This document shows positions 10,703 to 38,017 of a stretch of 64,000 nucleotides of DNA, piece after piece (position 1 is the stretch's first letter; the number at the start of each line of letters is the position of its first letter). The notes beneath the pieces were generated by a model that worked only from the letters and a program-made list of their open reading frames with translations, had not been told where the DNA came from and ran no database searches. Source of the DNA: Candidatus Margulisiibacteriota bacterium. Its GTDB lineage: Bacteria; Margulisbacteria; Termititenacia; CAZZFK01. Both the position numbers and the translations under genes were made by a program. Location of the stretch: assembly GCA_042562495.1 (NCBI GenBank), contig JBHPMC010000003.1, positions 20,752-84,751 of the forward strand, read 5' to 3'.

Positions 10703-12598
10703 ATGTTAAAGAAGTTAAAATTCTTTCTTCTAGTTTTCCTGCTTTTAGGATTAACGATCACTCAAGTAAATGCATTTACCAATGGTGGCTATGTTGACGG
10801 ACAAACTCCTGGTGATTGCTATCTAACTTTTGGGATCAGTTCCTTTGTAAGTAGTAATACCGTTAATGTAAATACGATCCGGATAGATAGTGTTATATCA
10901 GACCGGGTCTATGTTTCAACAAATATGTCCAATATCCCGGTAAGTGTATCAGTAACCAATACCGGCGAGATCACAGCTACCTTTAATTTGAATTTGAGTA
11001 TATTTAACAGTACTTTAGGAACAGCCGCAGGTGGTTTTAATGTCGCGGGTAGTGGAACATTTACTTTAGCTCCTGGAACAACCTCAATATATTTATTTAC
11101 TGTTAATCCAGTTGGACCGCTTACGCCTACTTTCCCAGTAATAGTAGATGCAGTTGCTGCTGCGCCTGGCCCCTGGGGGCCGTTAGGCGATGATAATTGG
11201 TGGATTGCGATCGACGGTTCTTCAGTAACTGGTGCGGTCAGTCCGTGGTTGTGGGATACCAGAAATTTGCCGGCACCTATATCGATCCTGGTCACGCCAA
11301 ATATTTCTCAAGGATATAATCCAACTGAGCTGCAAGTTACTTTCAGCCGAGCTATGGATGATACAAAAGTAGCGAATTTTGATGCAGTAAGTTCTGATGG
11401 GACAGTAATGGCCTCCTTCGCAGGTAATTGGATTTCAGCTGCTACTACTTTAAGCTGGGTGGGTACGGTTGATACTACAACTTGGCCAGATGGCTTATAT
11501 CATGTCTCAGGCGATAGCGCCGTAGATTCTATGGGCATAACCATGAACCAAGATCCTTTTATTTTAGCTTACACTTTCGAAATAGACCGTTTAACGCCGA
11601 CAGTTAACTTATATCATAATCCTACTGCAAATCCGGGCTTTATTTTCCCGGTCACATTAGTTGCGGTTGATTTTGATGTAATACCTTTAGCTCCGGATCT
11701 TTGGGCGGAATTTTTATTAGATACTGGATTGACCACTTCTGTTCAAGTAACGGGCTGGGCTTCGGCAGGGGGACAAGGGATCACCTGGTCTGGAACTGTG
11801 GCGGTACCTATAAATGCTACACAGAATTCTATAGCAACGTTTAATAATCTTTCTGTTACAGATAATGCAGGATTATTTTCCAATGTTATAAATTCTGGTG
11901 CTACTTTTAATATAGGCGCAGGCGGGCCATATATTACAAATCTAACCTTTGATGGATTAGTAGTAATCAACGGGGATGTTATAGATCCTTTGCCTCAAAT
12001 ACGCTTCTTTATAGTTGATGGTGGAAGTTCTAGCGGCACACCGGGTATTGCCACAGCAAGTATTCGGATCACTATGAACGGTACATTGCTTGTTTCGGGC
12101 AATGCTTTAACTCAAGTAGGGACAACTCCATTTCGTACATATGAATGTATCTACAATATACCCAATGATCTTCCGGAAGGCACATATACTTTTGAGTTCG
12201 GGGCAAGTGATAGTGATGGTATCGCAGCGGTACCAGTTGTTGTCGTTGTGCGTGTTGTAGGAGGAGGCGTTGATCTTATACGCCAGCCTATAAACTGGAC
12301 AAATCCTTTCTCGCCAAATGGGGATGGAGTAGAAGATATTACTTATATAATTTATGAATTAACCAGATCTACTCCAGTAAGACTATATATCTTTAATATG
12401 GATGGAGAGATCGTCTGGAGAAAAGATATTGATGAAGGTCAGGAAGGTGGTCATGCCGGTTACAATGCAGTGGTTTGGGATGGATTTACTAGTTTCGGGG
12501 ATGATCTGCCTAATGGTGTATATATTGCACACGTCATCGTAAATGACAGAGGTACAAGAAAATCGCTTGGTAGGGCGAGAATAGTTATCTTGAAGTAA
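10703..12598 (+). CDS. Secreted surface protein (631 aa) with CARDB/Ig-like modules and a C-terminal FlgD-Ig/T9SS-CTD-like domain (cargo 1)
   Basis: Signal peptide MLKKLKFFLLVFLLLGLTITQVNA. Thr/Asn/Val-rich beta-sandwich-like sequence. The C-terminus carries the shared CTD. Confidence 0.75.
   Translation: MLKKLKFFLLVFLLLGLTITQVNAFTNGGYVDGQTPGDCYLTFGISSFVSSNTVNVNTIRIDSVISDRVYVSTNMSNIPVSVSVTNTGEITATFNLNLSIFNSTLGTAAGGFNVAGSGTFTLAPGTTSIYLFTVNPVGPLTPTFPVIVDAVAAAPGPWGPLGDDNWWIAIDGSSVTGAVSPWLWDTRNLPAPISILVTPNISQGYNPTELQVTFSRAMDDTKVANFDAVSSDGTVMASFAGNWISAATTLSWVGTVDTTTWPDGLYHVSGDSAVDSMGITMNQDPFILAYTFEIDRLTPTVNLYHNPTANPGFIFPVTLVAVDFDVIPLAPDLWAEFLLDTGLTTSVQVTGWASAGGQGITWSGTVAVPINATQNSIATFNNLSVTDNAGLFSNVINSGATFNIGAGGPYITNLTFDGLVVINGDVIDPLPQIRFFIVDGGSSSGTPGIATASIRITMNGTLLVSGNALTQVGTTPFRTYECIYNIPNDLPEGTYTFEFGASDSDGIAAVPVVVVVRVVGGGVDLIRQPINWTNPFSPNGDGVEDITYIIYELTRSTPVRLYIFNMDGEIVWRKDIDEGQEGGHAGYNAVVWDGFTSFGDDLPNGVYIAHVIVNDRGTRKSLGRARIVILK
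12287..12595 (+). other. CTD copy 1 (FlgD-Ig / T9SS type-A CTD-like sorting domain)
   Basis: PINWTNPFSPNGDGVEDITYIIYEL...VRLYIFNMDGEIVW...GYNAVVWDG...PNGVYIAHVIV...RARIVILK*. Confidence 0.65.
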
Positions 12599-12632
12599 GG
12601 TTATACCTGTGTGTTGGGGGGACAGGGTAAGA

Positions 12633-15509
12633 ATGAATAAGCGTTTCTTATTATTGCTCATTTTAGTGGGGGTACTATTGCTACCTGCTTTGGCTACAGC
12701 TGAAGTTGGTGCGAGTGATCCTTCCAGATTAAGCGTTGGTGCGCGACCATTAGGCATGGGCCGTATGTTCATTCCTGTAGCCAATGATGCCAGCGCAGTA
12801 TTTATGAATCCCGCAGGTATGCCTCAAGCAAAAGAACTCCAATTCATGACCATGGGGTCGCAAGTTGTCTGGGCAGTAGATTATCAGACCATAGGTTTTG
12901 TTCTGCCCGTTGGGAAATGGGGTGCTTTAGGTTTAGGTTATGCCGGTCGTAATGTTCCGGATATTGCTTTGTTTTCTGCTTCGGCTTCGATCAATAACCG
13001 CGTAGATAGAAGAGCAGCTGATTATGGATCATTCTCTGACAGTGCCTTATTGCTGAGTTGGGCCAGGCGTTTTGACCTATTCGGGCTAAAACGCGTAGGC
13101 TTGGGAGGAAGTTTTAAGTTCTTTCAGAAAAACGGGACCGGGTCATCAGCATTAGATGATGCTAATGCCACAGGTACTAATTTGGATCTGGGTGTGCATT
13201 GGAATTGGAAAGATGATATTAATTTTGCTTTCACAGGGCAAAATGTGTTGCGGCCATCAGATAAATCCGGGACCGGTGTCCTGATCTGGGATACAGGTGA
13301 GCGAGAGTATTTTGATTCTATATATAAGGTAGGCGTGAGCAATAGGTTTTTTGAGCGCAGAGTACTGGCCGGTATAGAATATGAAAAGAACGGAAGCCAG
13401 CCTAATTATCCCGGCATCGGTCATATAGGTGTAGAGTGGCATCCAATAAATTCTTTATATGTACGAGGTGGTATAGATCAGGCATTTGCTATGCCCGATG
13501 TGGATGCTAATTCTCGATACGATATGCATAATAATGTAACTTTAGGTCTGGGCTTATTGGTTTCTGGATGGCGATTTGATTATGCCTACCATTTATTAAA
13601 TGACATTCCGAATTTAACTACACACTTTATATCTATTTCACTTGTTGGTGATGATGAGCTGGCGCCTATGGAGCCTCCGGAAGTTGAGGTGGCAGTAACC
13701 TCAGATATTCTGGAAGTGTTTACGCCAGAAGACAAGACCATCACGCACTCTTCCTCAATTCTTATTTCAGGAAGAGTTAGGGATCGCCAGAACGTGCGTA
13801 TCAATGGTGAAGATTTCCCTGTGGATGAAGAAGGTGGTTTTGCCACTATCGGTCAATTAGGTATCGGCAGAAATGATGTTATCGTTTCTGTTGAAAAATA
13901 TCCGGTTAAGATCTTAAGAAGGGTATTGCGCTTAGCTTCATTTGTTGATGTGACAAAACAACCGTATAAAGATCCGATCGAATATTTAGCTACGCTTGGT
14001 TTTGTTGGAGAAGATTATGATGGCTTCTTTAAGCCCGATCGTTATGTGACCCGGCAAGAAGCGGCCAGTATGCTGGTCAAAATGCGTAATATTTCCTTGC
14101 CTGTCACAATGCGTGGGATCTGGGAAGATATTGATCTTGCTGCCAGCCAGGGCTTGATCGTTGGTTTCCCTGATGGTTTGTTCCGACCAGCAGAAAAATT
14201 GACCAGAGCTCAATTGGCAGTTATTTTGGCGCGTTTTGAGAACTTGCCGCTACCAAGTAAGACCACGTTGCCTTTAGCCCAAAGATATCTTGCTCAAGAG
14301 CACTGGGCTGCAGGGGCCGTGCAAGCTTTAGTGAATACTGGCTTATACAATTCAGAGGAGTTCAGCCCGCTATCCGGTCCGGTCACTAAGCAGGAATTGG
14401 TAATGGCGTTTTATAAGACCAGTTATGTCCAACGCAGAGTGAATAATATGCTCAATTTCATTGATGAACCGATCACGCCGACCATTCCTAAGAGGGCCAA
14501 TTTATTTATGCGCATATCACAGCCGGTCGATAGTGATGAAAAGCAGATATTTGAGCAGATCATGACCGGGAAGAAAGTGGTAGTGGAAGAGACGGTCGTT
14601 GAATCAGTCGGGAAGTTGACGCCTGAAGCCCCAGCATCAGATATAGATATTTATCAAATGATCGTTGCTAAGAAGGCGATCACCGATGTTGCAAAAGGTT
14701 CTGTAAAAGCACCACTGATGACCTTAATAAAGCCTATCGATAAAACAATAACTTATAAAAATATTGTTGTGGCCCAGGGTTCGGTGAAGAATGCTTCAAA
14801 ATTGTTGATCGATAATCAATCCATATACTTAAAACCTGGCGGTAAGTTCTATAAGAAAATCAAATTAAGTAAATTCGGGAAAAGAAAAATAGAGTTTAAG
14901 GCTACGAATAAAAGCGGAGGAACCTTGAGGAAAACGGTCAGAGTGCTTTATCTGCCAACAGTTAATGATATTGTCGAAGGTTCTTATAAAAAGACTGTTT
15001 CAGGCTTGGTTGCCTTAGGGTATTTAAAATTGGACAGTAAGAATAATTATGATCCTGCCAAGGATATGACCAGGGGGGAGTGGGCCTCTCTTCTATTTAA
15101 AGCCAAAGGGCTTGCACCTGTTGTCCTAAAATATAAAGATGTGCCGGCAACTTATCCATATGCCAAGAGGGTCGGCGCTGTAGCTAAAGCAGGTTATCTG
15201 CCTCCGGTTAGCCCGACACTCTATAAACCAAATGATCCATTAAGCCGAGCACGGGCCGGGATCAGTTTGGCTAAGCTGGAAGGATTAAAAGTGGAACAAT
15301 ATGCAGGTAAGACCGGGTTTAGTGATGTTTCAGTCAAACAGGATTATGCTAAATATTTAGCAGCTGCTAAAGCAGCAGGTATTCTCAAAGGTGAAACCTA
15401 TAAACCAATGAATAATTTAACCAAATTATCGGCCGCGCAACTTATTGCTGGGACTTCAAAAACAAGACAAAAACTGGCCGATCTATATGATTGGAATAAA
15501 GGTTACTAG
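12633..15509 (+). CDS. FadL/PorV-like OM beta-barrel fused to two triplets of SLH domains (barrel 1)
   Basis: Start chosen at MNKRFLLLLILVGVLLLPALATA (the track GTG at 12609 adds 8 aa). Hatch motif VGARPLGMGRMFIPVANDASAVFMNPAGM. The barrel ends with HFISISL (~13645) followed by an acidic linker. SLH-like repeats include FVDVTKQPYKDPIEYLATLGFVG...VTRQEAASMLVKM, WEDIDLAASQGLIVGFPDGLFRPAEKLTRAQLAVILAR and FSDVSVKQDYAKYLAAAKAAGILKG, among others (~13941..14430 and ~14962..15470). Confidence 0.7.
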   Translation: MNKRFLLLLILVGVLLLPALATAEVGASDPSRLSVGARPLGMGRMFIPVANDASAVFMNPAGMPQAKELQFMTMGSQVVWAVDYQTIGFVLPVGKWGALGLGYAGRNVPDIALFSASASINNRVDRRAADYGSFSDSALLLSWARRFDLFGLKRVGLGGSFKFFQKNGTGSSALDDANATGTNLDLGVHWNWKDDINFAFTGQNVLRPSDKSGTGVLIWDTGEREYFDSIYKVGVSNRFFERRVLAGIEYEKNGSQPNYPGIGHIGVEWHPINSLYVRGGIDQAFAMPDVDANSRYDMHNNVTLGLGLLVSGWRFDYAYHLLNDIPNLTTHFISISLVGDDELAPMEPPEVEVAVTSDILEVFTPEDKTITHSSSILISGRVRDRQNVRINGEDFPVDEEGGFATIGQLGIGRNDVIVSVEKYPVKILRRVLRLASFVDVTKQPYKDPIEYLATLGFVGEDYDGFFKPDRYVTRQEAASMLVKMRNISLPVTMRGIWEDIDLAASQGLIVGFPDGLFRPAEKLTRAQLAVILARFENLPLPSKTTLPLAQRYLAQEHWAAGAVQALVNTGLYNSEEFSPLSGPVTKQELVMAFYKTSYVQRRVNNMLNFIDEPITPTIPKRANLFMRISQPVDSDEKQIFEQIMTGKKVVVEETVVESVGKLTPEAPASDIDIYQMIVAKKAITDVAKGSVKAPLMTLIKPIDKTITYKNIVVAQGSVKNASKLLIDNQSIYLKPGGKFYKKIKLSKFGKRKIEFKATNKSGGTLRKTVRVLYLPTVNDIVEGSYKKTVSGLVALGYLKLDSKNNYDPAKDMTRGEWASLLFKAKGLAPVVLKYKDVPATYPYAKRVGAVAKAGYLPPVSPTLYKPNDPLSRARAGISLAKLEGLKVEQYAGKTGFSDVSVKQDYAKYLAAAKAAGILKGETYKPMNNLTKLSAAQLIAGTSKTRQKLADLYDWNKGY

Positions 15510-16868
15510 TTATTTGCGGATAACTTTTTTGACCACAGATTTTTCACTACCGTTATAAACAACTCTGGCTTTAAAGAAATAGGTCCCTTTGGGCAGCTCA
15601 GCTTTGAGTTTCCAATCAAAAACTGCAGTATAGGTTTTGTTGGGTTCCAGGGAGACTTTTTTAGCTGAGAAAACCTTAAGTGGTTGCTTCTGATCATCAT
15701 AGATGCTCAAAGCACACTTAATATCTGTAGTTACTTCTCCAGTGTTCTCGAACACAACCTCAGTCTTTACCAAGCCATTGATCTTCTTAACGGTCATCTT
15801 ATTGATGGCAGCATCTTTTTTAAATTCTAATAAAGGTATTTCCTCAACATCAGCTGAAGCAACTTTGAGCTCACCAGGGCTTACCTCTCTTGGCTTTTCT
15901 GCCTCATCGATCTTCTGCTCTTCTTCTAATGGTTCGATGAGATCTTCTTGTTCTTCAAGAAGATAACTAAGGGATAGGAAATGCTTATTATCAACGACTT
16001 CACCTACTGGTTCTGTAGCAAAAGTATAATGCAGCCCGAATTTTTCATAAGCCAGGCTGGTGCCTAAGAATAGGCGCTCCTGATCGTAACCGGCACGGAA
16101 GGTCAGATACTTATTGAAAATAAAACGGCCACCGACCTTTAGCCCCAATCCGCGATCACTGCGCGAATTAACATCAACTGCGAGCAGGAATTGTCTGGTT
16201 ATTTTATGTGATACTCCGATGATGATATTGAACGGTATGGTTTCTATAAGATCGCTATCCGTATCCCAGGCAAGCTGGGGCGGAGTAATATTTTGATAGA
16301 CCAGACCAAGCTGGGTCCGAGAATTCAATCTATAAAATAAACCGGCATCAAATCCTGTGCCTGAAGCGCCGTTATCATAAAGCGATTCCTGGATGTATTT
16401 AAAGTTCAGACCAACTGCTAATTTCTTATCCAGTGCTTTAGCCGCTGAGAAGACGTAGGCATTGCCTTGATAACTAAAGCTCTTGCCAGTTAAGCTTCCT
16501 GCCCCATTTTGATAGGTAGCTTCTTTGATACCATCTACGCGAGTATTTAAAATATTCACTCCAAGAGCGATATCCCAGATCCTTGGATCACGTAACCGGT
16601 TATAGCCTAACTGGAGATAATCAACATCGCCTAAGATCGTCCCCTGCATAGAATTTACTTCGCTACGATTTACATAAGCCAGTACAGCAGGATTCCAATA
16701 ACCCACAGTTCCGTCCTCTGCAAAGGCCACCACTGCAGCGCCCATGCCCAGGGATCGGGCACCCACAGGTCTCATTATAAATGAGCCTGCAGAGGTTGCG
16801 TCTGCAGTGGTAGACCACTGTCCGAGGAGCAGTGTTATTAAAATTAAAATACTAAACAGTTTTCGCAT
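15510..16868 (-). CDS. FadL/PorV-like OM beta-barrel with C-terminal CARDB/CTD-like Ig domain (barrel 2, partner of the 4178-aa protein)
   Basis: Signal peptide MRKLFSILILITLLLGQWSTTADA. Hatch motif VGARSLGMGAAVVAFAEDGTVGYWNPAVL. The barrel ends with KHFLSLSY followed by a Glu-rich linker. Its AGGAG RBS overlaps the stop of the upstream giant gene (9-nt gap). Confidence 0.7.
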   Translation of the reverse strand: MRKLFSILILITLLLGQWSTTADATSAGSFIMRPVGARSLGMGAAVVAFAEDGTVGYWNPAVLAYVNRSEVNSMQGTILGDVDYLQLGYNRLRDPRIWDIALGVNILNTRVDGIKEATYQNGAGSLTGKSFSYQGNAYVFSAAKALDKKLAVGLNFKYIQESLYDNGASGTGFDAGLFYRLNSRTQLGLVYQNITPPQLAWDTDSDLIETIPFNIIIGVSHKITRQFLLAVDVNSRSDRGLGLKVGGRFIFNKYLTFRAGYDQERLFLGTSLAYEKFGLHYTFATEPVGEVVDNKHFLSLSYLLEEQEDLIEPLEEEQKIDEAEKPREVSPGELKVASADVEEIPLLEFKKDAAINKMTVKKINGLVKTEVVFENTGEVTTDIKCALSIYDDQKQPLKVFSAKKVSLEPNKTYTAVFDWKLKAELPKGTYFFKARVVYNGSEKSVVKKVIRK

Positions 16869-16877
16869 CGTTTACTC

Positions 16878-19800
16878 CTATTTCAGTACGGCGATCTTGA
16901 CCCGCTTAACTTTGCGGTTCTCGCCATCTGTTGCAACGATGTAGGCGACATATACTCCGTTGGCCAGGATCTCGCCCCACTGATCCTTGCCATCCCACGC
17001 TATCTCTCCGGAACTGGAATTTACATCTTCTTCGGTCTCCCATATTTTTTGACCACTGATGTCATAAACATAGATCTTGATGTTGGCCTCGTTCCTATTT
17101 ATGTTGTACATGAAATGGATAGAATCGTTATGTAAATTGACCGGATTTGGCGCAACAAAAGTTTGTAAAGCACTTAAGGAAGATTGTACGTTCAAGCCAA
17201 CAACGGCGAACTTGGAGAAATGAGTTGTACTGAATACAAGAGTAGTACCATCAAAACTAATAATGGTTATGCCATCGTTACTCCAACTACTTGTACTGGT
17301 ATTGTAATAATAAATACTGATCTGATTGGCCGGATAATTGAAGCTCATACCTAAGTTCAGGGTTACGATAACCGGATTGGCGAATTGTGGATCTGTAACA
17401 GGATTTAATGCCCCATCCAGCAATTCTAGATAGAACGGAAGTAAAAAGGACATTGCTTCAGTATCGTTCTCTGTCGGCGCCAAGTTGAAGCTAACGTAGG
17501 CCTCATAAGCTACTGCGCCTACTGGTAAAGTTATGTCAGCTGTGACATTTACAGAAGGATCGCCACTGATGAATTGAAATACTTTCTCTACTGTTAACAC
17601 AACTTGGCTGGCAGAAGTAGGGCTGAGATTACCGGCATTGTCGATACAGGTGGCATTGATAGTATTGTAGCCAGGAGATCTCAGGGCAACTTGCAAGGAG
17701 AAGCTTCCTGTAGTGCTGACCGGGCTGGAACCAAGCAATCGTCCGTTATTATAGATGCGTACTGTAGCGCCGGCCTCGGCCGAACCGCTGATTTTGAATA
17801 TACCAATGTTAGTTGTAGCCGGGGCCAGAGGCACTGGCAAACTGGATAATACTGGTGCAGCAGGAGGATAAGTATCCGTTTCGGTGCTGAAGGAGTAGTT
17901 GAGATTAGTAATATTTGGCGGATTACCATAATCTGCTGTTTGTGCTGCGACCTGTACAGTATCGTTATAGTTGAAAGTCTGGGCAGGTGTGAATGTAATA
18001 TTGTAGGTAATAGGTCCTCCAGAGATCACAGTTCCGCCGGCAACAGGAATGCCACCTACGCTGACAGTAACGCCTATTAGTCCTGTTTGGATACCTGTTT
18101 CGTTATCATAGGTTTGCAGAACGATGGTCGTATTTGTAGAGACATTCGTTGCTCCAGAAAGCGGTGAAAGAGCAGAGAGAAAAGGATCGCCATTGTCCTG
18201 GCCGGAAATGAAATTATATTCATCGACCACTGCATTGCCGCTTATATCTGTTGCATTAATAGTTACATATATCGTACTTAAGATGCCGAAATCAGTATCG
18301 TGAGTGAAAGATGCATCGTAGGTTGGGCCACTGCCGACAATATTTAAGACAAGATCACCGGTGATAATCCCCTGGCCGCTGTCCAGAACCTCAATTGTTA
18401 CGGAATCAACTGATACTCCGGTTTCAAGATCAACGATTGAGAAATTGACCGGTGCATCCTGAGCCCCGGCTCCTGATTTTTGCGGATTATGCCCGAATAT
18501 TGTAGGTGACGTTAGATCTTGTTCGGTTATAAAATAGAAATTATCGGTGACCAGATTATCTCTAAGGTCTTTTGCTGATATTGTGACCACCACGGTCTCG
18601 AAATAACCGAGTTCAGGTGTATAAGATACTGTATACTGACCGGCATTGCCGTTTATGTTGAGAGAAGCGCTGACATCAACATTATTGACCTCTAGTATTA
18701 TCGAATCGAGAGAGACGCCGCTTTCTATATCCGTAAGAGTGAAAGACATGTTGGTATCCTGAGCAACATTTGTTGTATCTCTGGTAGGTATTAAGCTGGA
18801 AATGACTGGAGCGTTGGTATCATCTATGGTCTGAAAACTATAAGAGATGCTACCAGGATTACCACCAATGTCTTCAGCGTTAACAGTTAGGTCGATGGTT
18901 TCCAGATATCCAAAATCGTTGGTAACTAATGTAGCAGTATAGCTATTCATGTTGCCGGTGATATCCATGGACGCTGAAAGATCTATACCAGCAACCAATA
19001 TCTGTATGGTATCCAAACTTACGCCTGTTTCAGAATCAGATATGATTAAGCTGATAGGAGTTGTCGGGGAGACACTAGTTGCTCCATTGGTCGGCGATAG
19101 AGAGCTGAATTGAGGAGCTGTCGAATCAGCGTGGATAGTAAATCCATAACTTATGCTTCCCGGATTATCCAAGAGATCATATGCTGAAGCAGTAACAGCT
19201 ACTGTTTCTCCGTAACCAAAATCAACACTTGGTGTATAGCTTACTTGGTAACTACTGGTAGTTCCTGAAATGCTTAGCTCATTGGTTACTTCAAGCTCTT
19301 GGACCCAGAGCCTTATAGAATCTTGGGATACACCGCTGCCGCTATCCTCAATAGTAATGTTTATTGAAGGATTTAAGGTAACATCAACTGCACCAGCTAA
19401 AGGATCTAGGCTATTAAAGGTCGGTGGTGTTGATTCAGGTGGCGCCTGGCCGATTCCGAAGCTGTAGGTCACTGTCTGGCTGTTGGCGGAGACATCCTCA
19501 ACATTGATGGTCACTGGTACAACAGAATTATAATTAAAGGTCGTGACCGGGTTATAAGTGACCAGATAATCACTGCCGGACAAGGTGATCTGGTCAGGGA
19601 CTACTGCTTGAGAGTCCACTTCTAGTTGTAAGGTATCGATGCTGACCCCGGATAATGTGTCGGAGATACGGAAAGCGATAGGCGTATCATTCACATTGCC
19701 CGTGCTATTTTGTGCAGGATATATGTCGCTTATTTCAGGAGGGAAATTATCATCAGCTATCTTTTCATAAGCTCCCATATCATATTGCGCCGTAGCGCCT

Positions 19801-22800
19801 GCTGAGACAAAGCGACCTAATTGAGGTCTGGTTATGCCCAGAATATCAGCTGCGGGTATATAGCTGCCTACAGACGTGCCTGTTTCAATAGCCAAAGAAT
19901 CTGGTTGAAGTTGGAAATCATAATTTGGTGTAGAGATAAATTTTGGATCAGAGGTTATTACACCTTCTTCAGATCCAGCCCAATTTTCAATGTCACTGTA
20001 TTTTAAGTTTAGGCTAAATTGATTGCTGATCTGTGGATTTGTAGCTGCAGTATTTCCCCAGAAAATATTATTGCGTAGAGTTGCGGAATTGTTATTATAA
20101 AGTCCACCGCCATCACTGGATCCACCTGGACAAGTGTTCTCAGAGAAAGTATTGTTATTAAGATATAAGATATCGTTGTTATATATACCTGCGCCTTGGC
20201 CGGTATTATTTAAGGCTTTATTCTCAGCAAAGATACAATTTATAATTCTGGCAGTCTGATTATTGTGATATATTGCGCCTCCTTTGCTGCCGAAGTTGTA
20301 TTGACTTTCATTACCGATAAAAACAGCTTTTTCTAGATCCAGAGCATTATCACTGTATATAGCTCCACCATAGTTATTAGCAGTATTATCAGTGAAATGT
20401 CCGCCGTTTATGTATATTCCACTTGATGTGTTGTATATAGCACCGCCATGACTGTTAGTGCTCTTATTCCCGATAAAATCGGTGTTTTGAATTGTTCCAG
20501 TACCATTTTCTTTATAAATAGCACCGCCATAATTGACAGCAGTATTATCATTGAACAGACTATCTACAATATATAATGCTATTCCTTCTCCATAAGCGTA
20601 GATGCCACCTCCATAATAACTCGAACTAATATTGCTGCTTACTATCACATTGTTCAGGGTCAGGGCCGAATTATCCGCCAAATAGATACCGCCTCCTTCA
20701 TTTACATTATTGCCGTTCTGGATGGTCAAATCTTCAATCGTAAGGGCTGTTCCATTGCTACCATTAAATGTACCAACGATTATTACGCGGTCATTGTTCT
20801 GCGCATCTATAATTACACTGCTAGATGCTGCCGGAGATATTCCTTTTAAGGTCAAATTCAAAGGTTTAGTAGGCCAGGTTATTTTAGTGGTCAGCTGGTA
20901 ATTGCCGGTCACAGCGATAGCAACTCCATTTGTAACATTATTATCGGAAAGATAATTCAAAGCATTTTGAATAGAATTGAAAGGATTAGCATAGCTTCCG
21001 CCGCCGCCGGCAGCAGCATTGGCACTTACATATACGGTGGAGAGCGCCCCTTGGGTAAAGAAACTATAGTCATCTATATAGGTTGTATTGCCTAAGCTGT
21101 CCTCAATATGGATAAGAACATTTACCGTAGTTTCTGGCGGATATGCAGTATCTGGATCAAGGATTACCGTGTAATCATTAATAGTTCCGCTATAGGTAAC
21201 GGCGCTGCTTAGCTCTGTATAGACAGTACCATTAATAGATATGATCAAAGAGGCAATATCAATCCCTGGATCGTCATCTCGGATCTTTAAGGTTATAGGC
21301 TCATCGGCGGGAACGTTCTGTGAATTATTCAGTGGATCAAAACTATAGATCATAGGTGCTTGGTATTCATAAGCTCCGATATCGTATTGATCACCTTGTG
21401 GTCGGGCTTGACCATTAATATCTATAGAGATATTTGATGTAGTTCCTTGATCGATCAGAGGTGAACTATGCATCAAGGAATAATCTAAACCAGCGTTAAC
21501 GAACTTTGGGTCGACCGAAATATTACCGAGGCCAGCATAGCCGCTCTCAATATCAGAATATTGGACTAATATAGTAGCTATATTGTTTATTTGAGAAGTG
21601 TTATCCCAAATAATTGTATTTAGCACATTAGCAGAGGCATTGTTATAAATTCCCGTTGAATTATCAGCTAAGACAACTTGGCTGATATATGTTTCACCGG
21701 ATAGATTTGAGATACCAATCCCATTATGAACAACCAGGCTGTTCTGTATCATAAAAGTGCCGTTATTAGAAACGCCTGAAGTACTGTTGCCGGAGATCAG
21801 CAATTGTTCTGCTTGTAATATTGCGCCACTTTGGACCTGTATACCAGTGCTGCCACCAGTGATAGTTAGGCCGTAGATATTTGCCGAAACAGTTTGTGCC
21901 AGATCAATGGCTAATCCATTGTTGCCATTGAGGATAACAGCTGTATAAGCATTTGGAGTATTGCCTTTTAGTGTTACTCCTTGTTTATTTGGCCAATTAA
22001 TATTTTCTGTATATGTTCCGCTTAAGACAGATACTGTGCCGTTTTCTTTAACAATGTCCAAGCCTTTTTGGATAGTAGCAAAAGGTAGTGCCATTGTTCC
22101 TTTTCCAGTAGTATCGTTGCCTCCGGTCGAGATGTATACATCTTCAGGCGCTATTATGGTGAAAGAAAGGATATCCTGTCTGCCCGCTCCGTTTTGGTCT
22201 GTAACATCAGTTGTAGCCACATAGGTCTTGCCTTTATCAAGATCGACCGCTGGGGTAATTGATATCAAAATATTTGCCGTGGTCGCTCCGCTTAGATCAG
22301 TGTAGTTAAAAGTATTTGAACCTGAAGCTTTATAAACCAGGCTATTAAAATTTATTGTTACTAAATTAATATCTACAGTTGAGGAGTTATCCACGATCCG
22401 CAGATAGACAGGCGTTGTAGCTGGAATATCTATGCCCGCCTTATCCGGCACATGGTCTATTACATATATAGAACGATATTCAAAGATACCCATATCAGGC
22501 AGGTTGTATTGAGGTCTTTCATGCCCGGCATTGTCTGTATCAGCCAGCGCAAGGATATTATCTGTCCCGCTTTCTATAGCGGGAGAATCGACAAGTAAGC
22601 TATAGTCCCCACTTGCTTCGTTAGTAAATTTCGGATCAGCGCTAACATTTCCAATGCCTGTTGAAGCTCCAGGGAAAATGCTGTAATTGATATTTACTAA
22701 GCCAGCGGGCATATTATTCGAGAAGATGGAATTAGTTATATCATTGTTGCTTCCCGAGATCGCAATGCCTCCGGCATTATTGCTGACAAAGACACAGTGT

Positions 22801-25800
22801 TGGATAGTGTTGTTGCCATCAGTTATGGCATTGCCGTTAGAACCACTGCTATTCGATCTGAAGATACTATTTACTATTATATTAATACCAGAATATAGAG
22901 CGCCACCACTACCTGCTGTAGCGGAGTTGTTTATAAATTCAGAATTGTTTATGGTCGTTCTTTCAGAAGAATCTTTATAGATCGCACCACCACCACCCGT
23001 GCCTGAGGTAGTATTGTTTTGGAACACACAATCCTCAATAGTTAAATTACCGCGATAGATCGCACCACCACCATTGTTTGAATTATTGTCACTATTATCT
23101 ACGAAAGAACAGTTAGTAAATGTAGCTTCTGCTGCAGTTAAAGCAGCGGCGCCACCGTTCATAGCGGCTGTATTGTTGATAAATAAGGAGTTATCAGCCT
23201 CAACAGTCACTAAACCACCGAAACTGGATAAACCGCCACCATAACCTTGGGTAATATTGCTGGCTTGGTTGCCAGAGACAATGACATTGTTCAAGGAAAT
23301 AGTAGTACCACCGGCTAGTCTAATTCCACCACCACTACTGCTGGTAGCATTTCCGTTACGAATAGTCAGCTTTTCAATGGTCAAGTGTATTGCCGTAGGG
23401 ACATCGATAGCCCGGGCAGAACCACCGCCATTGATGACAACGCTGGTCGAAGTGGCAAATCCGCTTCCTTTTAAGGTTATATTATTTATATTCGGCCAGG
23501 TCAGATTCTCATTGTAAACCCCGGTATTTACTTCAAGGGTCTCTCCAGCGTTGGCTGAAGCCAGTGCTTGGGCTATAGTTGAATAACCTGTAGCTTGGTC
23601 GACATTGACCACATTGAAAGGTACCGCTTCATAGGCGCCCATGTCATAACCTGAGCCAAGTGGCCTGGAATTGCCATCAAAATCAGTAATGACCCCTATT
23701 GAATATGTCGCCGTATCCAGGGCCATGGAAGCTGGGTTCAAATGCAGATCAAAAGTGCCCTCATTAATGAACATGGGATCGGAGGTGATATTGCCCAGGC
23801 CTCCACCGGACCAATTCTGTAGATCGGAATAAGTTACAGTAATGGTCCCCTTCAAGCCATGCCCAGACCTGTTATTCCATAAAATAGAATTGATAATGTT
23901 TGTCTGCGCAGCGCCTTGTACAGAATCTCCGGTGACCTGGGCCGTATTCTTAAAGAAAGTAGAGTTGATTATCTTACAATCGGTATTGATGTTGTAAAGA
24001 GCACCGCCACTATTGAGGGCATTATTACTGACAAATATCGAATTGATTATCTTTACCTTGCCGTAATTAGCACCTGCTCCACCGTCGCTGATAACTGCTT
24101 TATTCTCTTCAAAATAACAGGCATTAAAAGTTGCCGCTCCGCCTGTAGTGGATTTAAAACCTCCACCTTTTTTTGCTTCGTTATTAAGGAAAGAACAATT
24201 ATTCGCAGTAAGTTTCGCGGTGCTGCCCATGTAGATAGCCCCGCCATCCACGCTGTTATCGATATTGTTATTGAAAGTAACTCTATTTAAATTAGCTATG
24301 CTTCCCATGGATAAGGCGCTTTTCTTGTTGCCGGAGACGATACAATCATACATATTTAGAACGGCAGACTGATTATCAGATTTAATGCCTCCTCCTTGAC
24401 CTATAGAGGTGCCATTCTGGATGACCAGGTTCTTGATGCTTAAAGACACAGCTTGTGCGACATTGATCACAGTGTCACTATTGCTCCCATCCAGGACGAC
24501 GGTACCATTGCCTTGCAAAGTGATGTTATTCTTATTGGGCCAGGATAAGTTCTCATGATAAGTCCCTGCATCGACAGAGATGATATGTCCCGCTTGTAAG
24601 GCAGCATCAGCTAGGGCTTCGGCGATACTTAGGTAGTGCCGATTGGGCGAGGCAGAAATATTGTGGGCATAATAATTTAAAGCATTGCCGGTTATCAAAG
24701 CATCCGGATCTGCTATAACACCATCTGCAGATGCTCTGACAATATGGAAACTATCTCCAAAAGGCAGGCCAAATGCTGTTTGTGCGATACCGGTCGGGCC
24801 AGCATAGGCAAGGGGAGAACCTATTATCCCGTTGCCTGTAACTAAGGAGAAATAGACAGGCGCTCCTGATACAGTGCTGCCTAATAGGTCGGTCACGGTC
24901 ACGGTCAAATTTATAGTTGCTTCCGCATTATTAGTGATATTTGTTTCCGTGAAATTAAGTGTAGAGATAAAGGTGCTGCCATAAACTGAGAATTTCTTGA
25001 CCTTGAACGATGCTTTGTTCTCTGCTGGAGTATGTACATAATTATATATCCTGTTCAGATAATCACTAGAAGGGACACTTGTCCTATTACTGCCGTTGTA
25101 ATTAGTTATTGTTTGTGGACCGAACCCGATATCCAGTGTCAAAAGAGGGCGCTTAGAGCTGAATACTGAATTATAAAGTACAAGAGGGACATAAACGGCT
25201 GGAGAGGCACTGTTCACAGTAGTACCCAAGTTACTTGTTGAAGCCACATTGATCTCTGGTAGTTCTTCATTATTCTTAGTGATGATCAGGTCGGAGAAAT
25301 CAAAGTCAAAGATACTGATACCTAATTCGCTTGGGATTATCTTAATGCTGCCCAGATCGCTGCCTGCTAATTTACGTTTGATATATATATTTGTAGCTGA
25401 AGTTATGTTCTCTGTATTGCCAGCTTCATTGACATAGTAATAGGAAAGGTCCAGAGGTAAGCGTACTTCAAGTTCTTCATATATACCCATATCTGGGTAA
25501 CGGCCTTTTAAACGGGCTCGCGTATTTGTGAAATCATATTGAGGGATATTGACAGCTGTGCCAGTTTCAAAAGCTGGAGAATTCCTGCTGACATGAAAAT
25601 CACTATTTGCTACATCTATGAAGAGCGGATCGCTACTAATATTACCAGTGCCAGAAGTTGGATTTTGAATATCAGAATAGGTTATAGTTCCAGCACCTGA
25701 ATTACTCCAACCTGTAGTGGTGTTTCCCCAGATAATGGAGTTCCAAGCATCCAAGGTTCCCGAGTTGCTAATGCCGATGCCATTATTATAAACAATACAA

Positions 25801-28800
25801 TGTCTTACTTGTGCGTATCCTGCAGTATTAATTAGACCTACACTGGAGTTGTTGACAAGTAAAGAATTATCTAAATAGAGGGTGCCACTTGCTTTATTTA
25901 TTCCAATTATATTGCTGGCGATAATAGATCTGTTGATGGTTATCAAAGTATCTGTGATATTGATCCCGGCAGAATTGCTCGCAGTTACGATAATATTGTC
26001 AATATTAACTGTAGTAGTATTTAGGGAAATTGTATTTTTGAAGATAATATTCTTAAGTTCAGCGCTATTATTCTGGACCATAAAAGAATTAGCGGAAATG
26101 ATACTTGTATCCGGGGAAGACGAAGTGCTTCGTAAAGTGATGTTTGAGGAAATACTTCCATCCCAATTTACTGATCCGGAAAAAGTATCATCATTGATCC
26201 AGATCGTATGATCATCTTCGGCATCTTCCAGTGCGGATTGAATGTCGGTGTAGTATCTTGTAGGCGTATGATCACTGTTGTAGATCTTAAGAAGTTCTGT
26301 GTTGAATTTAAAAGCTCTTGATAAAATATCTGCTGAAGCATTTTGAGCGTTAATAGTCACATTGATCGTAGAATCAGTTGCCCAGTTCATTGTTGGAGCC
26401 AGGGTGATCGTTAGTGCTGCAGTTGGAGATCCGCTACCAGTAATATTAAGAGTGGCTGGGCCACCTAATGTATATTCCACACTATTTACATTCACGGTTA
26501 TCGAGGTGGAGGCTACTGAATGTAATAGATCATATATTTTAAAAGAGATTATTTGGTCAACAGGCCTGTCGATACTATCTGGCGTCGGCTGTATAGCGGA
26601 GACCATTAGATTCTGGTGTTCATACACACCTATATCATAATTACTGATCTGGGGTCTTTGAATGCCAATTAGATCATATTGGCAATTTTCACTTACCTGT
26701 ATATTGCTGAGCAGATTTGTCCCTGCTTCGATCGCTAATGAGGATGGTTGAAGCCGGTAATCGTTATTTGTGGTATCTACGAATAAAGGATCCGTTGATA
26801 AATTTCCAGTGCCAGCATGGCCACCTTGGATAATAGAATAAGAAATAATCCCAGTTACATCTTGTAGCTGAGTACCATTACCCCAAATTATTGAGTTATA
26901 TATGTTTTGCTCGCCGCCATAAATTCCATGACTACTGTTATTGTTTACTATTATATTAGAGAAGAAATTATCGACATTGTCGCCAGTGTAGATCCCTGAA
27001 GCATTTGAGCCGGTATTGTTCTTTATGATGCTGTTGGTTAAGAATAGTGAACTGTTATTTGCTTGATAGATACCGGCGCCCCAGTCTGCAGCATTTCCAC
27101 TTATAATACAATTATTGATATTAAGAGATACTCCTTGGTTTAAGAAAACACCGCCACCTTGTACTGTATTCCCTCCGTTTTGAATTACTAAGCCTTCAAT
27201 ATTTGCAGAGACAGAACTTGAAATTTTTATTGTAGAATCTGCAGCACTACCATCGATCTTGACCTGAAAGGGCGCGTAAATATCAGCTGATCTTAAAGTA
27301 ATACCTTGTTTGTTCGGCCAGACAATATTTTCGGAGTAAACTCCTGGGTAAACAATCACTTCTCCAAAACGACTGATCTGTTGCAAGCCTTCTGCAATGG
27401 TCACAAAAGGGCTGACTATTGTGCCATCTCCCGAAGGGGAAGCGTTTATATCTACATAAACAGTTGTGAGCAATTCAGTTTCGAATGAATAATTAGCAGT
27501 AAGTGTATGGCCGTGAATATCATCAACAGATACTTCAACGGGAATCCAAGTGATGTATTCAAAATCAGTAGTAGGAACGTATTGGACACTATAACTTGTT
27601 ATAGCAGAATTGCTGCTGGTTATCAGGTCAGTTACATTAATACCATTAACGCTTACGGCTAAAGTTGATATATCAACCCCATAGCTATCAACAACATCAA
27701 AATTAATAGTGCTGTTAATTGGAATCCCTTGTTCTCCAGGAGCAGGATTTTGTGCGCTTATAGTTGGTGGATCTACTTCGGCAAGGGTTTTAAACGACCA
27801 GGAATCGGTTGTTATGTTACCTGAGCTATCGCTAACACTTATGTTTACTGTGATAATACTATTAACTGGCAGATTAACCGTTGGAACATAGTATGCATTT
27901 ATTGTAGCTAGATAATCCCCTTCCGTATAAACCTCGGAAGAAATATCTTTTCCATTAACGGTCATAATTATTGAGTTTGTATCGATCCCGGGAAATTCAT
28001 CGAATGTTCCAAATGAGATCGTTGTTATTAGCGATAGATCAATGCTGTCAGGAGTAGGGATCTTTTCAAATACATTTGGTGGTGTTACTTCGGGGATAGT
28101 CGTAAAAACAGTATCACTCGTATTAATATTCCCCGAAATATCTTCAATATATACGGTCAAATTGTAAATGGTCCCAAGATCTAGCTCCTCTAAACCAGGC
28201 AGATCAACGTGATAGTTATAAGTTGATCCTGTTATATCAATGAATGTAGAGCTAGCCGTGATCGCAAAATTATTAAAAGTAATTATTAGAGAATCAATGT
28301 TCACTCCAGTTTCTTGATCAGTTAGATCAAAGCTCATTGTTGGATAAAGAGAAACATTTGTACTAGTGTCTGCTGGCGAAAGGTTTATTATGTTTGGAGG
28401 AGTAGTATCCTGATGAACGTCAAAAGAGTAGGAATCGGTTTGAATGTTGCCAGAAATATCTTTTACTTCGATCTCAACAGAGACGGGAACACCATAATCA
28501 AAATCAGTAGAAGGATCATGAGTTACCGAATAGTTATACATTGAACCGGTATAGGTTGTGCCAACAACAGCTCCGTTAACGCTAACGATCAGTGAATCGA
28601 TGCTGACACCAGTTTCAGTATCAGAGATCGTAAAAACAATGGAACTGTTGGTCGGAACATCAGAAGCTCCAGAATCAGGATCTCTGTTGGCTATAGCAGG
28701 AGGAGTAGTATCCTGATGAATGTCAAAAGAGTAGGAATCAGTTTGGATATTGCCTGATATGTCTTTTACTTCGATCTCTACAGTAACAGGTATTCCGTAT

Positions 28801-31454: not shown

Positions 31455-34400
31455 TTGGCAAAAAGAATAATAAAGCTTTTTATTTTTTCTTTATTTATTG
31501 TGTTCCTGGGAGCATCAGGCACGTGTGCTTTTTATAACGGCTCTCAAGTTGGCGATACTCCGTGGGCAGGGATTCCAGCCCCGGGTGCTTTATGGGTCTC
31601 TGGAAATGTCAGCGGCTGGGGGAATCTTTATCAAAGAATAAATGATCAGCCGGTAGCCTATACAACTACTTTAAAGCTTATAGAAACATTCATTCCTGCC
31701 AATGTGGCCAGGGGTAGTACTGTTACTGTTTCTTATGTTATGGAAAATACCGGGGATGATACCATCTTAGTAAATGCTGCATCGCTCAGCTTTTTCCAGG
31801 GATCGATCAATCCAGTAAATAATATCGGCTCGGAATATACTATTACGCCGCTCACTCCTATAGGCTTTAATTTGCTGCCCAATACTTCAACAACTTTTAA
31901 TTTTTCTGTATTTATTGCTACAAATGCAACGACCGGGAGTATTGTGGTCGATGGTGTAGCCACCGGGAATGCCAATGGTTCAACGATCGTGGATGACATT
32001 TGGCAGGATATTACCGGGGCCTGGAATAGCGCGGCAATTACTGCTAATTCCTGGAATGTATGGGATGGCGCTATAGTAACAGTTACTTCGGTTGTGGTGC
32101 CTCCAACCCGCAGTATCAGTACAACTGCAACTTTTAATGTCACGGTTAATATTTTAAATACCGGCGGAGTTTCTGCGAATCTATTTGTTCCGTCTACAAA
32201 CAATCTGGTCTTTTGGCAAGTAAGTGATATCTCAACGGATTACAGTATCGTGGCACCAGCAGCAATGGTTGGCGGGGGATTAGTTCTTGGTCCAGGAGCA
32301 AGTGATACCCTTGTTTATCAAGTGGTTTTCTCAGCAGATAATTCCCCGCCGATCACAACCGGCAGTATTGCTGTAATAGCTTCGATCTCAGGCACAGGAG
32401 ATATTTTAGCCAATAATATTACAGGGGTTGGTACCGGCAATTTTTTTGTAGAAACAGCTGCTTCTTTATCGGTCTCTGCTATTGACATTGTTTCACCAAA
32501 TGGGGCCCAGGATTTTATTTTAAGTGCCGGGCAAAGTTTTGTTGTTTCGGTGAATATCACAAATTATGGGGAAGCAGGAATAACAGGGCCTGCCCAAGTA
32601 CAGTTAGCCGTTCCTGCGGGATATACACTGATCAGTCCTGCGATCCAGTCCTTTATGGCTGGAGGAGATGTTACTTGGAGCGTAACAGCTACAAATACCT
32701 TTCTCAGCTTAGATGTTATTACGGTAAATATGAATACAATACCATTGGATGTTAATAATCTAACAACGGTTCCTGTTAATCCAGCACTAGTGACCGCTGG
32801 ATTAACGATCGAAAAACCTGCTCAGCTTGAGAATCAGACCTTGGCAATAAGCTCGCAGAATTTTCTGGCAGCTGAACCTCAAGTTCCGCCAATAGTGATC
32901 ACCTTGAACGTGCAGAATGTGGGAAGTGCAGATGCGATTCTAACGCCAACAGCATCAGATCTGGTCTTTACCGTAAGCTCAAATCCTTGGAGCGGCTATA
33001 CAGTAACTATCCCGTCTTCAAGTATCTTTATTGCCGGTAATGGCGATACAAAAGATGTGGTCTATTGGCTGACCTTGACCGGAACTCAAATGGGGTGGGG
33101 CACCTTAAATGCCACAGTATGGGGTATTGATCAAAATTCTAATGTGCCTACAGAAAGCTATTGGCCTACCGGAACGTGGCCAGGAGCTGCGGTAACATTT
33201 TATGTTACCGGCAATACAGCAATCGTAAACGGCCAGGTCTATACTGATAGGAATCCGATAGGATATCTGCAGCCTTTTCAGGCGTTTGTTCCCATAACAA
33301 ATAGCAGCACAGATATTACGGCTAATGTTACGCCTTCGGATAATGATCTTATTATTTGGTTAACTGCCTTTCCTGGTGTTGACTTGACAGTGAGCTTCAA
33401 TGTCTTGGCTGCTTCAACGACACAGTTCCAGTTATTTCCAGGCCAAAGCACTGTAATAACCTATAACATTATTCCATCAGCAGATGCTATCGATGGTATT
33501 TATAGTATCGGGGCGCGCAGCGGTGCTCCGGCCGCGACCAATAATGCTAATGGACAGAGTGTTGCCGATGCCTCGGGAGGCATACCTACAACAGATGTGC
33601 GTTACGATACGATCTCACCGAATGTTATTGCAGTGTCTACAAATGTTCAAACACCTGTTGGTCCTACGAACAATTTTATTTTAATAGCACGTTTTGATGA
33701 GGAAATGTTGCCGTCTTCAACTCCAGTAGTATCTGTTCAATGCGCAGGGGCTACTCCAAATATCGTAGGCGGTACTTGGTCAACGATTGTATCGCAAAAT
33801 GATACTTATACATTTAATCCTACAACAATACTTGCGGGGAACGAAGGCTGGGTCACGATCTCATTTACGGGAGGTGGGCAGGATCTGGCAGGCAATTATC
33901 AAGCTACAAGCAATTGGACCTTTTACATAGATGCCACAGCTCCGACTTGTGCTGTAACGATAAATGCAGGTGAAGCAGTAACAACTAATTCATTAGTCAC
34001 TTTAACTATTGAAGGCGGAGATGATATTACAACTCCAGGCGCATTACAGATGATGATCTATGGTGATGTGTCGGGCAATCCTGGGATAACTGTTAATCAA
34101 TTTATCCCATATCAGCAGACCGTTACAATTAATTTAGATACTATTATCGGGACTAAGAATATTTATGTAGTAATGCGTGATGAGGCGGGCAATATAAGTG
34201 TGACGGCTAACGATGATATTTTCTTGGATTATGCGGGAGCGTATTTTGTATCGCCAAGTATGGGCGAAGCGATCGGCGCGACCTATAATCTTAAGGTCAA
34301 TAGCTCTGCTTTTTCTCAAGAGATCTATTATTACTATATAGATTCTTCAGGGAATACTACTAATTTTTATGTAGATACCTCACCCGGGCCGCCATACCCG

Positions 34401-37056: not shown

Positions 37057-38016
37057 ATGAAGAAGAGTTTAGCTATATTGCTAACTCTCCTCTTGTTTGT
37101 TCAACAAGGATGGGGGGCGCTAAAGATCACTGGGGATAGTTCACCAGCAGATATTTCCCGTGTGGGTATCGGCGCCAGACAATTAGCCATGGGCCGGGTA
37201 AGTGTGGGTACTGCAGATGATGCCGGCGGCTGGCTATTAAATCCGGCCGGCTTGGCGGGGATCCGGGCCCCGGAAGTGAATACCATGATGACCAAGCTTG
37301 TTGGGGAGTTTAATTATTATTTCCTTTCCTATGTACAGCCTGCCAAGCAGGATACCTTTGGTGTTAGTTTATTACATGAAAATCCCGGATCTATTCCTCG
37401 CGTAGATAGCTTGGATGTCAATGGTTATCCAGTTGATTCAGGAGATACGATAGCTGCTGGAAGCACTTTGTTATCTGTAGGTTACGGTCGAAAGTGGTCC
37501 AAGAACTTGTATCTGGGAGTGGCGGTCAAACATTTCGTGCAATATTTAGATAATGCACACGGCACCAGTACCGGAGCAGATGTTGGCTTGATCTGGGGCA
37601 CACCTATAAAAGATCTGTCGGTAGGCGCGACTGTGGTAAATGCAGCACAGCAAGGTATTCGCTGGGACACAACGGACAGTACTTTGTATAATCTGCCAAC
37701 ATATTTAAGAGTTGGGCTAGCCTGGGAAGTGCTCAATAAACGTTTGACCTTAGCTATCGATGATGAGATCGGTAATTTTAATCGTTTGAACTTGGGAGCA
37801 GAATACTGGTTCAATAAAAATTTCGCGCTCAGGATGGGGACCTACGGAGAGATCCTTACTTTAGGAGTTGGGCTGCGTCACGGATTTTTTGAATTAGATT
37901 ATGCGTATTCCTATGAGCAGGGGCCAATAACTCAAACAGCTTTTGTTTCGTTGACTTTTGGCAATGCTAGACAAAGTGAGCTGGAACAACCAGAGATATA
38001 TATATTGGAGGAATAA
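37057..38016 (+). CDS. FadL/PorV-like OM beta-barrel, barrel only (barrel 3)
   Basis: 319 aa. Signal peptide MKKSLAILLTLLLFVQQGWG. Hatch motif IGARQLAMGRVSVGTADDAGGWLLNPAGL. Terminal strand AFVSLTF followed by a short acidic tail. Lies 7 nt after the 1864-aa gene. Confidence 0.7.
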   Translation: MKKSLAILLTLLLFVQQGWGALKITGDSSPADISRVGIGARQLAMGRVSVGTADDAGGWLLNPAGLAGIRAPEVNTMMTKLVGEFNYYFLSYVQPAKQDTFGVSLLHENPGSIPRVDSLDVNGYPVDSGDTIAAGSTLLSVGYGRKWSKNLYLGVAVKHFVQYLDNAHGTSTGADVGLIWGTPIKDLSVGATVVNAAQQGIRWDTTDSTLYNLPTYLRVGLAWEVLNKRLTLAIDDEIGNFNRLNLGAEYWFNKNFALRMGTYGEILTLGVGLRHGFFELDYAYSYEQGPITQTAFVSLTFGNARQSELEQPEIYILEE

Positions 38017-38017
38017 T

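Follow-up and report, generated by a model that had tools for sequence, protein, structure and literature searches.

The window analysed here is a 64,000-nucleotide (nt) stretch of contig JBHPMC010000003.1 from a Candidatus Margulisiibacteriota bacterium (GCA_042562495.1), a member of the Margulisbacteria, the phylum sister to Cyanobacteria. It carries four genes for proteins of very different sizes which end in the same C-terminal domain, hereafter called the tail, resembling the C-terminal domain (CTD) signals in type IX secretion systems (T9SS) (Table 1). Each of these cargo genes has a PorV/PorQ-family gene on the same strand 7-18 nt downstream (NF033709; PorV2, NF052325). Partner 1 starts 10 nt past the stop of cargo gene 1, and partners 2, 3 and 4 lie 9, 7 and 18 nt downstream of their cargo genes, respectively. 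The four C-termini had been aligned by eye in an initial annotation of this DNA; the envelopes from hidden Markov models (HMMs) given here are shifted by a few residues relative to its coordinates.

Table 1. Tails, cargo genes, partner barrels and the separate SLH protein in the window. iE, independent E-value; aa, amino acids.
Feature	Position	Strand	Description
CTD copy 1	12284..12595	+	residues 528-631 of 631-aa protein; iterated-profile iE 1.3e-35
Cargo gene 1	10703..12598	+	631 aa, signal peptide; passenger without known domain
Partner 1	12609..15509	+	966 aa; PorV-like barrel at residues ~41-344 fused to Glucodextran_B and three SLH
CTD copy 2	16881..17165	-	residues 4084-4178 of 4178-aa protein; iE 5.7e-30
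Cargo gene 2	16878..29414	-	4178 aa, signal peptide; Big_5, Big_6, Big_1, beta-helix
Partner 2	15510..16868	-	452-aa PorV/PorQ-family barrel; NF033709 90.6 bits (cut-off 90); own barrel HMM
CTD copy 3	36741..37046	+	residues 1763-1864 of 1864-aa protein; iE 4.3e-31
Cargo gene 3	31455..37049	+	1864 aa, signal peptide; Big_7
Partner 3	37057..38016	+	319-aa stand-alone PorV/PorQ-family barrel; NF033709 111.6 bits (cut-off 90)
SLH protein	37958..40474	+	838 aa; Big_13/Big_12, Glucodextran_B and four SLH; directly behind partner 3
CTD copy 4	40870..41160	+	residues 133-229 of 229-aa protein; iE 1.4e-34
Cargo gene 4	40474..41163	+	229 aa, signal peptide
Partner 4	41182..44505	+	1107 aa; PorV-like barrel at residues ~33-340, Glucodextran_B and weak SLH match

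The tail domain comprises roughly 95 residues; the four copies in the window are 93-103 aa long and run right up to the stop codons of their open reading frames (ORFs; 631, 4178, 1864 and 229 aa). The search set for the own genome, which is 1.3 Mb in size and 67% complete, comprised 3,157 ORFs of at least 60 aa. When each tail was compared with these ORFs by phmmer, the other three were matched, every pair with an E-value between 1.8e-16 and 1.4e-4, and no match fell beyond one set of 11 proteins. The tail similarity among the four proteins is confirmed as real and far beyond chance, in agreement with the initial annotation, which had proposed one shared domain and listed its motifs. These are present: an initial PNP, a strand with IY-x-x-x-G, W-D/N-G, NGVY and the basic ending K-x-x-V-L-K, with W65 and Y80 invariant in the 11-row tail alignment. 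A genome-wide count with an HMM made from just these four tails, which the initial annotation had suggested, added seven proteins, six of them with domain E-values between 3.9e-30 and 4.2e-13 and one, of 5879 aa, weakly at 0.01. After iteration, the profile settles on eleven proteins (229 to 5879 aa) with scores of 1e-37 to 1.5e-18. Each of the eleven carriers begins with a typical signal peptide and has only 0-3 residues after the domain. A cytoplasmic distribution of the domain was rejected, given the signal peptide on every carrier. The passengers are otherwise unrelated, as had been noted from the letters alone: they contain Big_5/Big_6/beta-helix, Big_7 or no known domain.

Comparison with family models places the tail close to several known CTDs. 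Among Pfam models searched with the eleven tails one by one (E <= 0.01), FlgD_ig (PF13860) was the most consistent match (11/11, best E = 2.8e-9), and CHU_C, the model for type B CTDs, matched 8/11 tails, two of them above the cut-off, and Por_Secre_tail, the type A model, 5/11. Of the four tails in the window, only tails 1 and 2 pass any Pfam gathering score. CHU_C (PF13585, cut-off 27) gives 39 bits for tail 1, 29.9 for tail 2, 17.5 for tail 3 and no match for tail 4; FlgD_ig gives 29 bits for tail 2 and 20.6 for tail 3, tail 2 being the only window tail above 27 bits. With Por_Secre_tail (PF18962, cut-off 27) none of the four reaches the cut-off, tail 4 scoring 26 bits. Tail 2 exceeds the cut-off of 23 for TIGR04183 with 29.9 bits, and tails 1, 3 and 4 score 18.5-20.5; the score for TIGR04131 is 19.8 against a cut-off of 35. 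The NCBIfam matches lie in the last ~100 positions of the models for PorU, PorZ and T9SS-dependent proteases, in addition to TIGR04183, and tail 2 matches the C-terminal end of the PorU model at 2.5e-11. The comparison with FlgD_ig, type A and type B models that had been recommended returned matches to all three, mostly below cut-offs. In a full-protein Pfam scan, the tail of the 4178-aa cargo falls under the cut-off and that of the 1864-aa cargo gives nothing. The tail is not flagged in the precomputed Pfam annotation of a sister genome either. Routine annotation largely misses the tail.

The AlphaFold2 (AF2) model of tail 1, built from the 11-row alignment, is a seven-strand beta sandwich with pLDDT of 91.6. 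In a Foldseek search of the PDB with this model, generic Fn3-like domains of C5a peptidases rank first, followed by PorU (6za2, TMq 0.74-0.76, rmsd 2.8-3.2) and by FlgD from several species with TMq up to 0.68 (3osv, 0.68); PorZ (5m11) is also listed. The type A CTD is a seven-strand sandwich as well, in which one near-invariant residue, a Lys near the C-terminus, touches PorV (Lauber et al. 2024, PMC10994853). In line with this, a basic residue stands 5-8 positions before the C-terminus in 45 of 48 tails from the own genome and relatives, and the final residue is K or R in 44. As judged from profile and fold matches, the tail is a Margulisbacteria branch of the T9SS-CTD/FlgD-Ig superfamily, positioned between the curated families. 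The sandwich alone is not a tag, since the fold also occurs as an internal tandem repeat. A search with the profile in a library of 1.84 billion representatives returned 147,367 proteins at E <= 1e-3; the top 150 matches are all large proteins, 148 of them with at least three copies. Most internal copies break off at profile positions 80-90, without the last basic strand, and copies that reach the profile end sit at the exact C-terminus, ending in motifs like GRGKIAVLK. The terminal strand appears to mark the tag version and to distinguish it from the ordinary repeat module. Several of the large metagenomic repeat proteins (P0005-P0154) end in ...NYSD...L...[FY], resembling a different C-terminal signal.

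The partner barrels belong to a family with a known T9SS member. A profile of eleven barrels from the own genome, partner 3 included, has the solved PorV 6h3i_F as its sole match in the PDB (2.4e-20). The stand-alone partners of 319 and 452 aa pass the NF033709 cut-off of 90, and the fused partners score 52-61 bits (partner 1, 52 bits for NF033709 PorV_fam, 63 bits for PorV2 and 8e-31 for SLH; partner 4, 60.6 and 57 bits for NF033709 and PorV2, respectively). All four partner barrels stay below the equivalog cut-offs for PorV, PorQ and PorV2, and the PorP/SprF family is not among the model matches of the partner genes at E <= 0.01. The hatch motif GARxxGMGxA...NPAG is conserved in partner barrels. 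In two of the four in the window, SLH domains are fused together with Glucodextran_B, and a separate SLH protein lies behind the third. This 838-aa protein is the separate-gene version of the extension that is fused in partners 1 and 4, and its gene order, barrel and then SLH protein, is shared with the sister genome GCA_964653455.1. With its listed TTG start (37958-40474, plus strand), its gene shares 59 nt with the end of the gene for the 319-aa barrel. Translation probably begins further downstream, because the orthologue in the sister genome (L173) starts 74 nt past the barrel gene. Elsewhere, some partner barrels bear a weak CTD-like Ig domain right after the barrel (L147:4372-6702, minus strand, iE 2e-7; L155:3012-4451, plus strand, iE 8e-8; L171:5543-6988, minus strand, iE 9e-4). 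In several relatives, PorV-like partner genes are split or contain one in-frame stop (e.g., L145:5997-7001, minus strand) and are possibly pseudogenes or assembly errors.

The pairing of tail and barrel genes extends beyond the window. In the own genome, a PorV-like gene adjoins 10/11 tail genes, with the barrel downstream in nine cases and upstream in one. The eleventh tail gene is located on a 3.7-kb contig, where the next, convergent ORF runs off the contig end and has no match to the barrel profile. Identities of tails and of partner barrels correlate both for the ten pairs of the own genome (Mantel test, r = 0.62, p = 2e-4) and for 48 pairs (r = 0.64, p <= 5e-4), and the pairs have therefore been inherited and duplicated as units. 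Such co-divergence is compatible with cognate recognition between tail and barrel, without being proof of it. RecA of the own genome shares 86% and 71% identity with proteins labelled 'Candidatus Margulisbacteria bacterium'. The eleven-tail profile detects the tail in all 121 genomes of the phylum, representing 92/92 genera, in 1-36 copies each. In addition, 40 of the best-scoring tail loci, a sample biased to high-scoring copies, were taken from ~30 genomes across the phylum. Of these loci, 35 have a PorV-like gene as immediate neighbour, and in 38 the domain sits at the exact C-terminus. The remaining two proteins have 33-40 extra residues resembling a membrane helix and a basic tail. Both (L157:6899-10000, minus strand, and L158:2-3127, plus strand, genome G043; ...GLLGAGGFAWTKFKR) are without an adjacent PorV-like gene, and the hydrophobic helix with its basic tail may represent an alternative anchoring mode. 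In eight near-complete genomes, 14-21 PorV-like matches were found per genome versus 12-36 tails.

The remaining components of a T9SS were searched for in 61 genomes of the phylum, 59 of which are at least 90% complete. No genome contains SprA above the cut-off (0/61), the only matches being modules of ~100 residues at model positions 590-715. GldL was found in 0/61 and GldM in 0/61, with one GldM match of 20 bits. Peptidase_C25, the catalytic domain of PorU, occurs in one genome of the 61 (G013:C28:23121-24188, plus strand, 176 bits). This match is part of a 3856-aa ORF, and a protease carried as cargo is therefore a likelier identity for it than a PorU sortase. In the own genome, only the CTD end of the PorU model is matched. 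As positive controls, we used four named Bacteroidota chromosomes obtained via their 16S signature, in which the same searches recovered GldL in 4/4, GldM in 4/4 and SprA in 3/4. The control in which the SprA search came back empty, although GldL and GldM were found, is the chromosome of Sphingobacterium detergens. A true SprA can thus be missed, which tempers absence calls for single genomes. Because the controls worked, the absence of SprA, GldL, GldM and PorU from the 61 genomes is credible at the level of these models, which very remote homologues, such as a distant SprA-like barrel, may escape. The genes flanking the cassettes in the window, checked for regulators and secretion parts, are housekeeping only (macro domain, PrmA, methyltransferase, SLOG, M20 peptidase).

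Taken together, the tail is probably a C-terminal sorting and docking module that binds the adjacent, cognate PorV-type barrel and is retained as an anchor. Cargo would be exported by Sec, as the signal peptides on all copies indicate. The tail would then dock on extracellular loops of its own barrel, as suggested by the solved SprA-PorV-CTD complexes and by gene pairing with co-divergence. The barrel would keep the cargo protein at the cell surface, and many barrels would in turn be tethered to the wall via SLH domains, either fused or encoded next door. The tail probably remains uncut and stays as a non-covalent anchor, given that no PorU-type sortase was found. The initial annotation had compared the domain with secretion or sorting tags such as T9SS CTDs, and this part is supported by the C-terminal position, the signal peptides, the seven-strand fold and the FlgD_ig, CHU_C and Por_Secre_tail matches. 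It had also taken the domain to be the common recognition element of this locus. The tag-like character stands. A domain specific to the locus was rejected, considering the 11 genome copies and the presence in 121/121 phylum genomes. Nor is it one element for one machine, as 10/11 copies have an adjacent PorV-family barrel of their own and the classical machinery was not found. The conserved cleavage site that might have been expected upstream of the domain was not found, nor was a conserved linker, in the 45 residues preceding each of the 11 tails, where the tail directly abuts the last passenger domain.

Several points weigh against docking and anchoring by the tail. Duplication of gene pairs can yield co-divergence without any binding specificity, and the Mantel correlation in the own genome leans on one close paralogue pair. 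Five of the 40 sampled copies have no adjacent barrel, and the same fold forms tandem internal repeats (5-19 copies) in many large metagenomic proteins. The only ground for proposing that the tail is not cleaved is the lack of a recognisable sortase, and the model includes no established translocon by which the passengers would cross the outer membrane. Finally, docking, surface location and retention are predictions for all members of the family, whose host is uncultured.

A translocon would be provided if this were a classical but highly diverged T9SS, in which the tail is a transient export signal for an SprA-type translocon, PorV-like proteins act as shuttles and the signal is then removed. 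We regard this as improbable, even though the genome does encode a possible translocon. An outer-membrane protein of 1866 aa with repeated SprA-like modules is encoded outside the window (C36:23147-28747, minus strand), and its family is present in 60/61 phylum genomes, either in a form of 1559-1876 aa or in a shorter one of 1308-1457 aa (relatives at loci L179-L196; the own copy is partly in L001). The modules match SprA model positions 590-715. Alignment of a 19-member profile of this giant protein with two SprA sequences by hhalign produced local matches only, with a probability of 72% versus 0.4% for the reversed control, and no sequence similarity in the barrel region. The AF2 model of the last 1100 residues has ~36 long strands (pLDDT 80, pTM 0.50). 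Its top Foldseek matches are the SprA chains 8gl8_A, 8gl6_A and 6h3i_A (E = 3e-6 to 1.5e-5), but the TM-scores with these chains are only 0.16-0.22. Moreover, linkage of the giant-protein gene to tail or barrel genes was seen in none of 18 loci. A plain SprA homologue was rejected: phmmer against the PDB returned nothing, Pfam only DUF2460 and hhalign only the local repeated module. The giant protein is, on this modelling, no more than a candidate translocon for the tail cargo. Further against a diverged T9SS, the GldL/GldM motor and the C25 sortase were not found in the 59 high-quality genomes with searches that succeeded in the controls, and the single PorV shuttle for type A cargo does not use one barrel per cargo.

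Alternatively, each PorV-like barrel could be the dedicated exporter of the neighbouring cargo, with the tail as targeting signal, as in two-partner-type export. The one-to-one, operon-like pairing of the genes would fit such an arrangement, and no other dedicated translocon is proven. However, barrels of the PorV/FadL family have 14 strands and an N-terminal hatch, the motif of which is kept here, and known family members are carriers or anchors rather than protein pores (PMC10994853, PMC9143113). With cargo of up to 5879 aa, export through these barrels seems quite improbable. It is very unlikely that the tail is a mere structural Ig-like end domain of a stalk or adhesin and that the FadL-like barrels serve another purpose, e.g., ligand uptake. 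The fold is indeed common as an internal repeat in large secreted proteins, as seen in the library search, but those internal copies mostly lack the last basic strand and the full-length ones occupy the exact C-terminus. Such an end domain would also have to be terminal in 11/11 and 38/40 cases, on unrelated passengers and beside homologues of a known tail-binding protein. We thus favour the tail as a docking module that is retained on its own PorV-type barrel.

Among known systems, those with type B CTDs and PorP/SprF barrels (SprB-SprF; PG1035-PorP-PorE) are similar in having a C-terminal beta-sandwich tag on large adhesin-like proteins and a cognate outer-membrane barrel gene directly adjoining each cargo gene. 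Type B CTD proteins bind and need the cognate PorP/SprF barrels that neighbouring genes encode, with no dependence on PorU or PorV, and in the PorE-PorP-cargo complex of P. gingivalis, PorE binds the wall (PMC9143113, PMC12618676). The type B tail is kept as a non-covalent anchor, and the same is proposed for the Margulisbacteria tail. The OmpA_C-like PorE would have its counterpart in the SLH domains, and the CHU_C matches agree with this relationship. The differences are in the partner, which is of the PorV/PorQ rather than the PorP/SprF family, in the TIGR04131 score, which is below the cut-off, and in the host: type B systems are found in Bacteroidota, whereas in Margulisbacteria SprA, GldKLMN and PorU were not found.

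Another likeness is to PorZ-PorQ and PorU-PorV, two pairs within the attachment complex of P. gingivalis, since there an uncleaved CTD on a PorV/PorQ-family barrel holds a surface protein. The best NCBIfam and Foldseek matches of the Margulisbacteria tails fall on the C-terminal regions of PorU and PorZ. In P. gingivalis, the two pairs are fixed parts of a machine and their genes do not form cargo-barrel cassettes, whereas Margulisbacteria have 10-20 cassettes per genome with diverse passengers. With the type A CTD (TIGR04183/PF18962) and its PorV shuttle, the tail shares the PNP start, a G-x-Y core, the sandwich of seven strands, the basic residue near the C-terminus and, as predicted for Margulisbacteria, binding to a PorV homologue. 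In contrast to type A, most Margulisbacteria copies score under the cut-off, are ~20 residues longer and contain a W-D-G insert of the FlgD_ig type. There is one PorV for all type A cargo versus one barrel per cargo in Margulisbacteria, which have no sortase or anionic lipopolysaccharide (A-LPS) pathway. The FlgD Ig-like domain has a similar fold (3osv, 7eha), but the FlgD N-terminal domain was not found in the carriers, which are surface proteins (229-5879 aa) rich in Ig domains or with a beta-helix and lack a flagellar context, and the Margulisbacteria tails have the basic terminal strand in addition. Considering that each copy has a barrel of its own and that the classical machinery was not found, the CTD analogy fits best to the carrier or anchor step and not to the whole T9SS.

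The literature regards the T9SS, CTD signals included, as a speciality of Bacteroidota (the FCB group, Fibrobacterota-Chlorobiota-Bacteroidota), and in the searchable literature we found no paper joining Margulisbacteria with type IX secretion or PorV. In our judgement, the cassettes vary a known theme: a tag of the CTD type is combined with a PorV-type anchor for each cargo, throughout a phylum in which searches for the T9SS motor, its sortase and a recognisable SprA found none. Every sampled Margulisbacteria genome (121 for the tail, 8 for the barrel) contains the CTD-type tail and the PorV-type barrel. These small genomes have 10-20 such dedicated cassettes each, often tied to the wall through SLH domains. 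As a tentative extension, which we consider rather unlikely, the cassette of tail and own PorV barrel could be a self-contained display or secretion system, free of motor and sortase and universal in Margulisbacteria, with the giant SprA-like barrel as its translocon. If this were true, the CTD-PorV-SprA triad would be older and more widespread than the Bacteroidota T9SS, and the motor driven by the proton motive force and the sortase would be later additions. With the tail, the surface proteome of uncultured Margulisbacteria, missed by standard Pfam cut-offs, can be predicted by a simple rule. The cassettes also represent a natural set of cognate tail-barrel pairs in which recognition specificity can be studied, and they provide a testable view on the ancestral parts of the T9SS.

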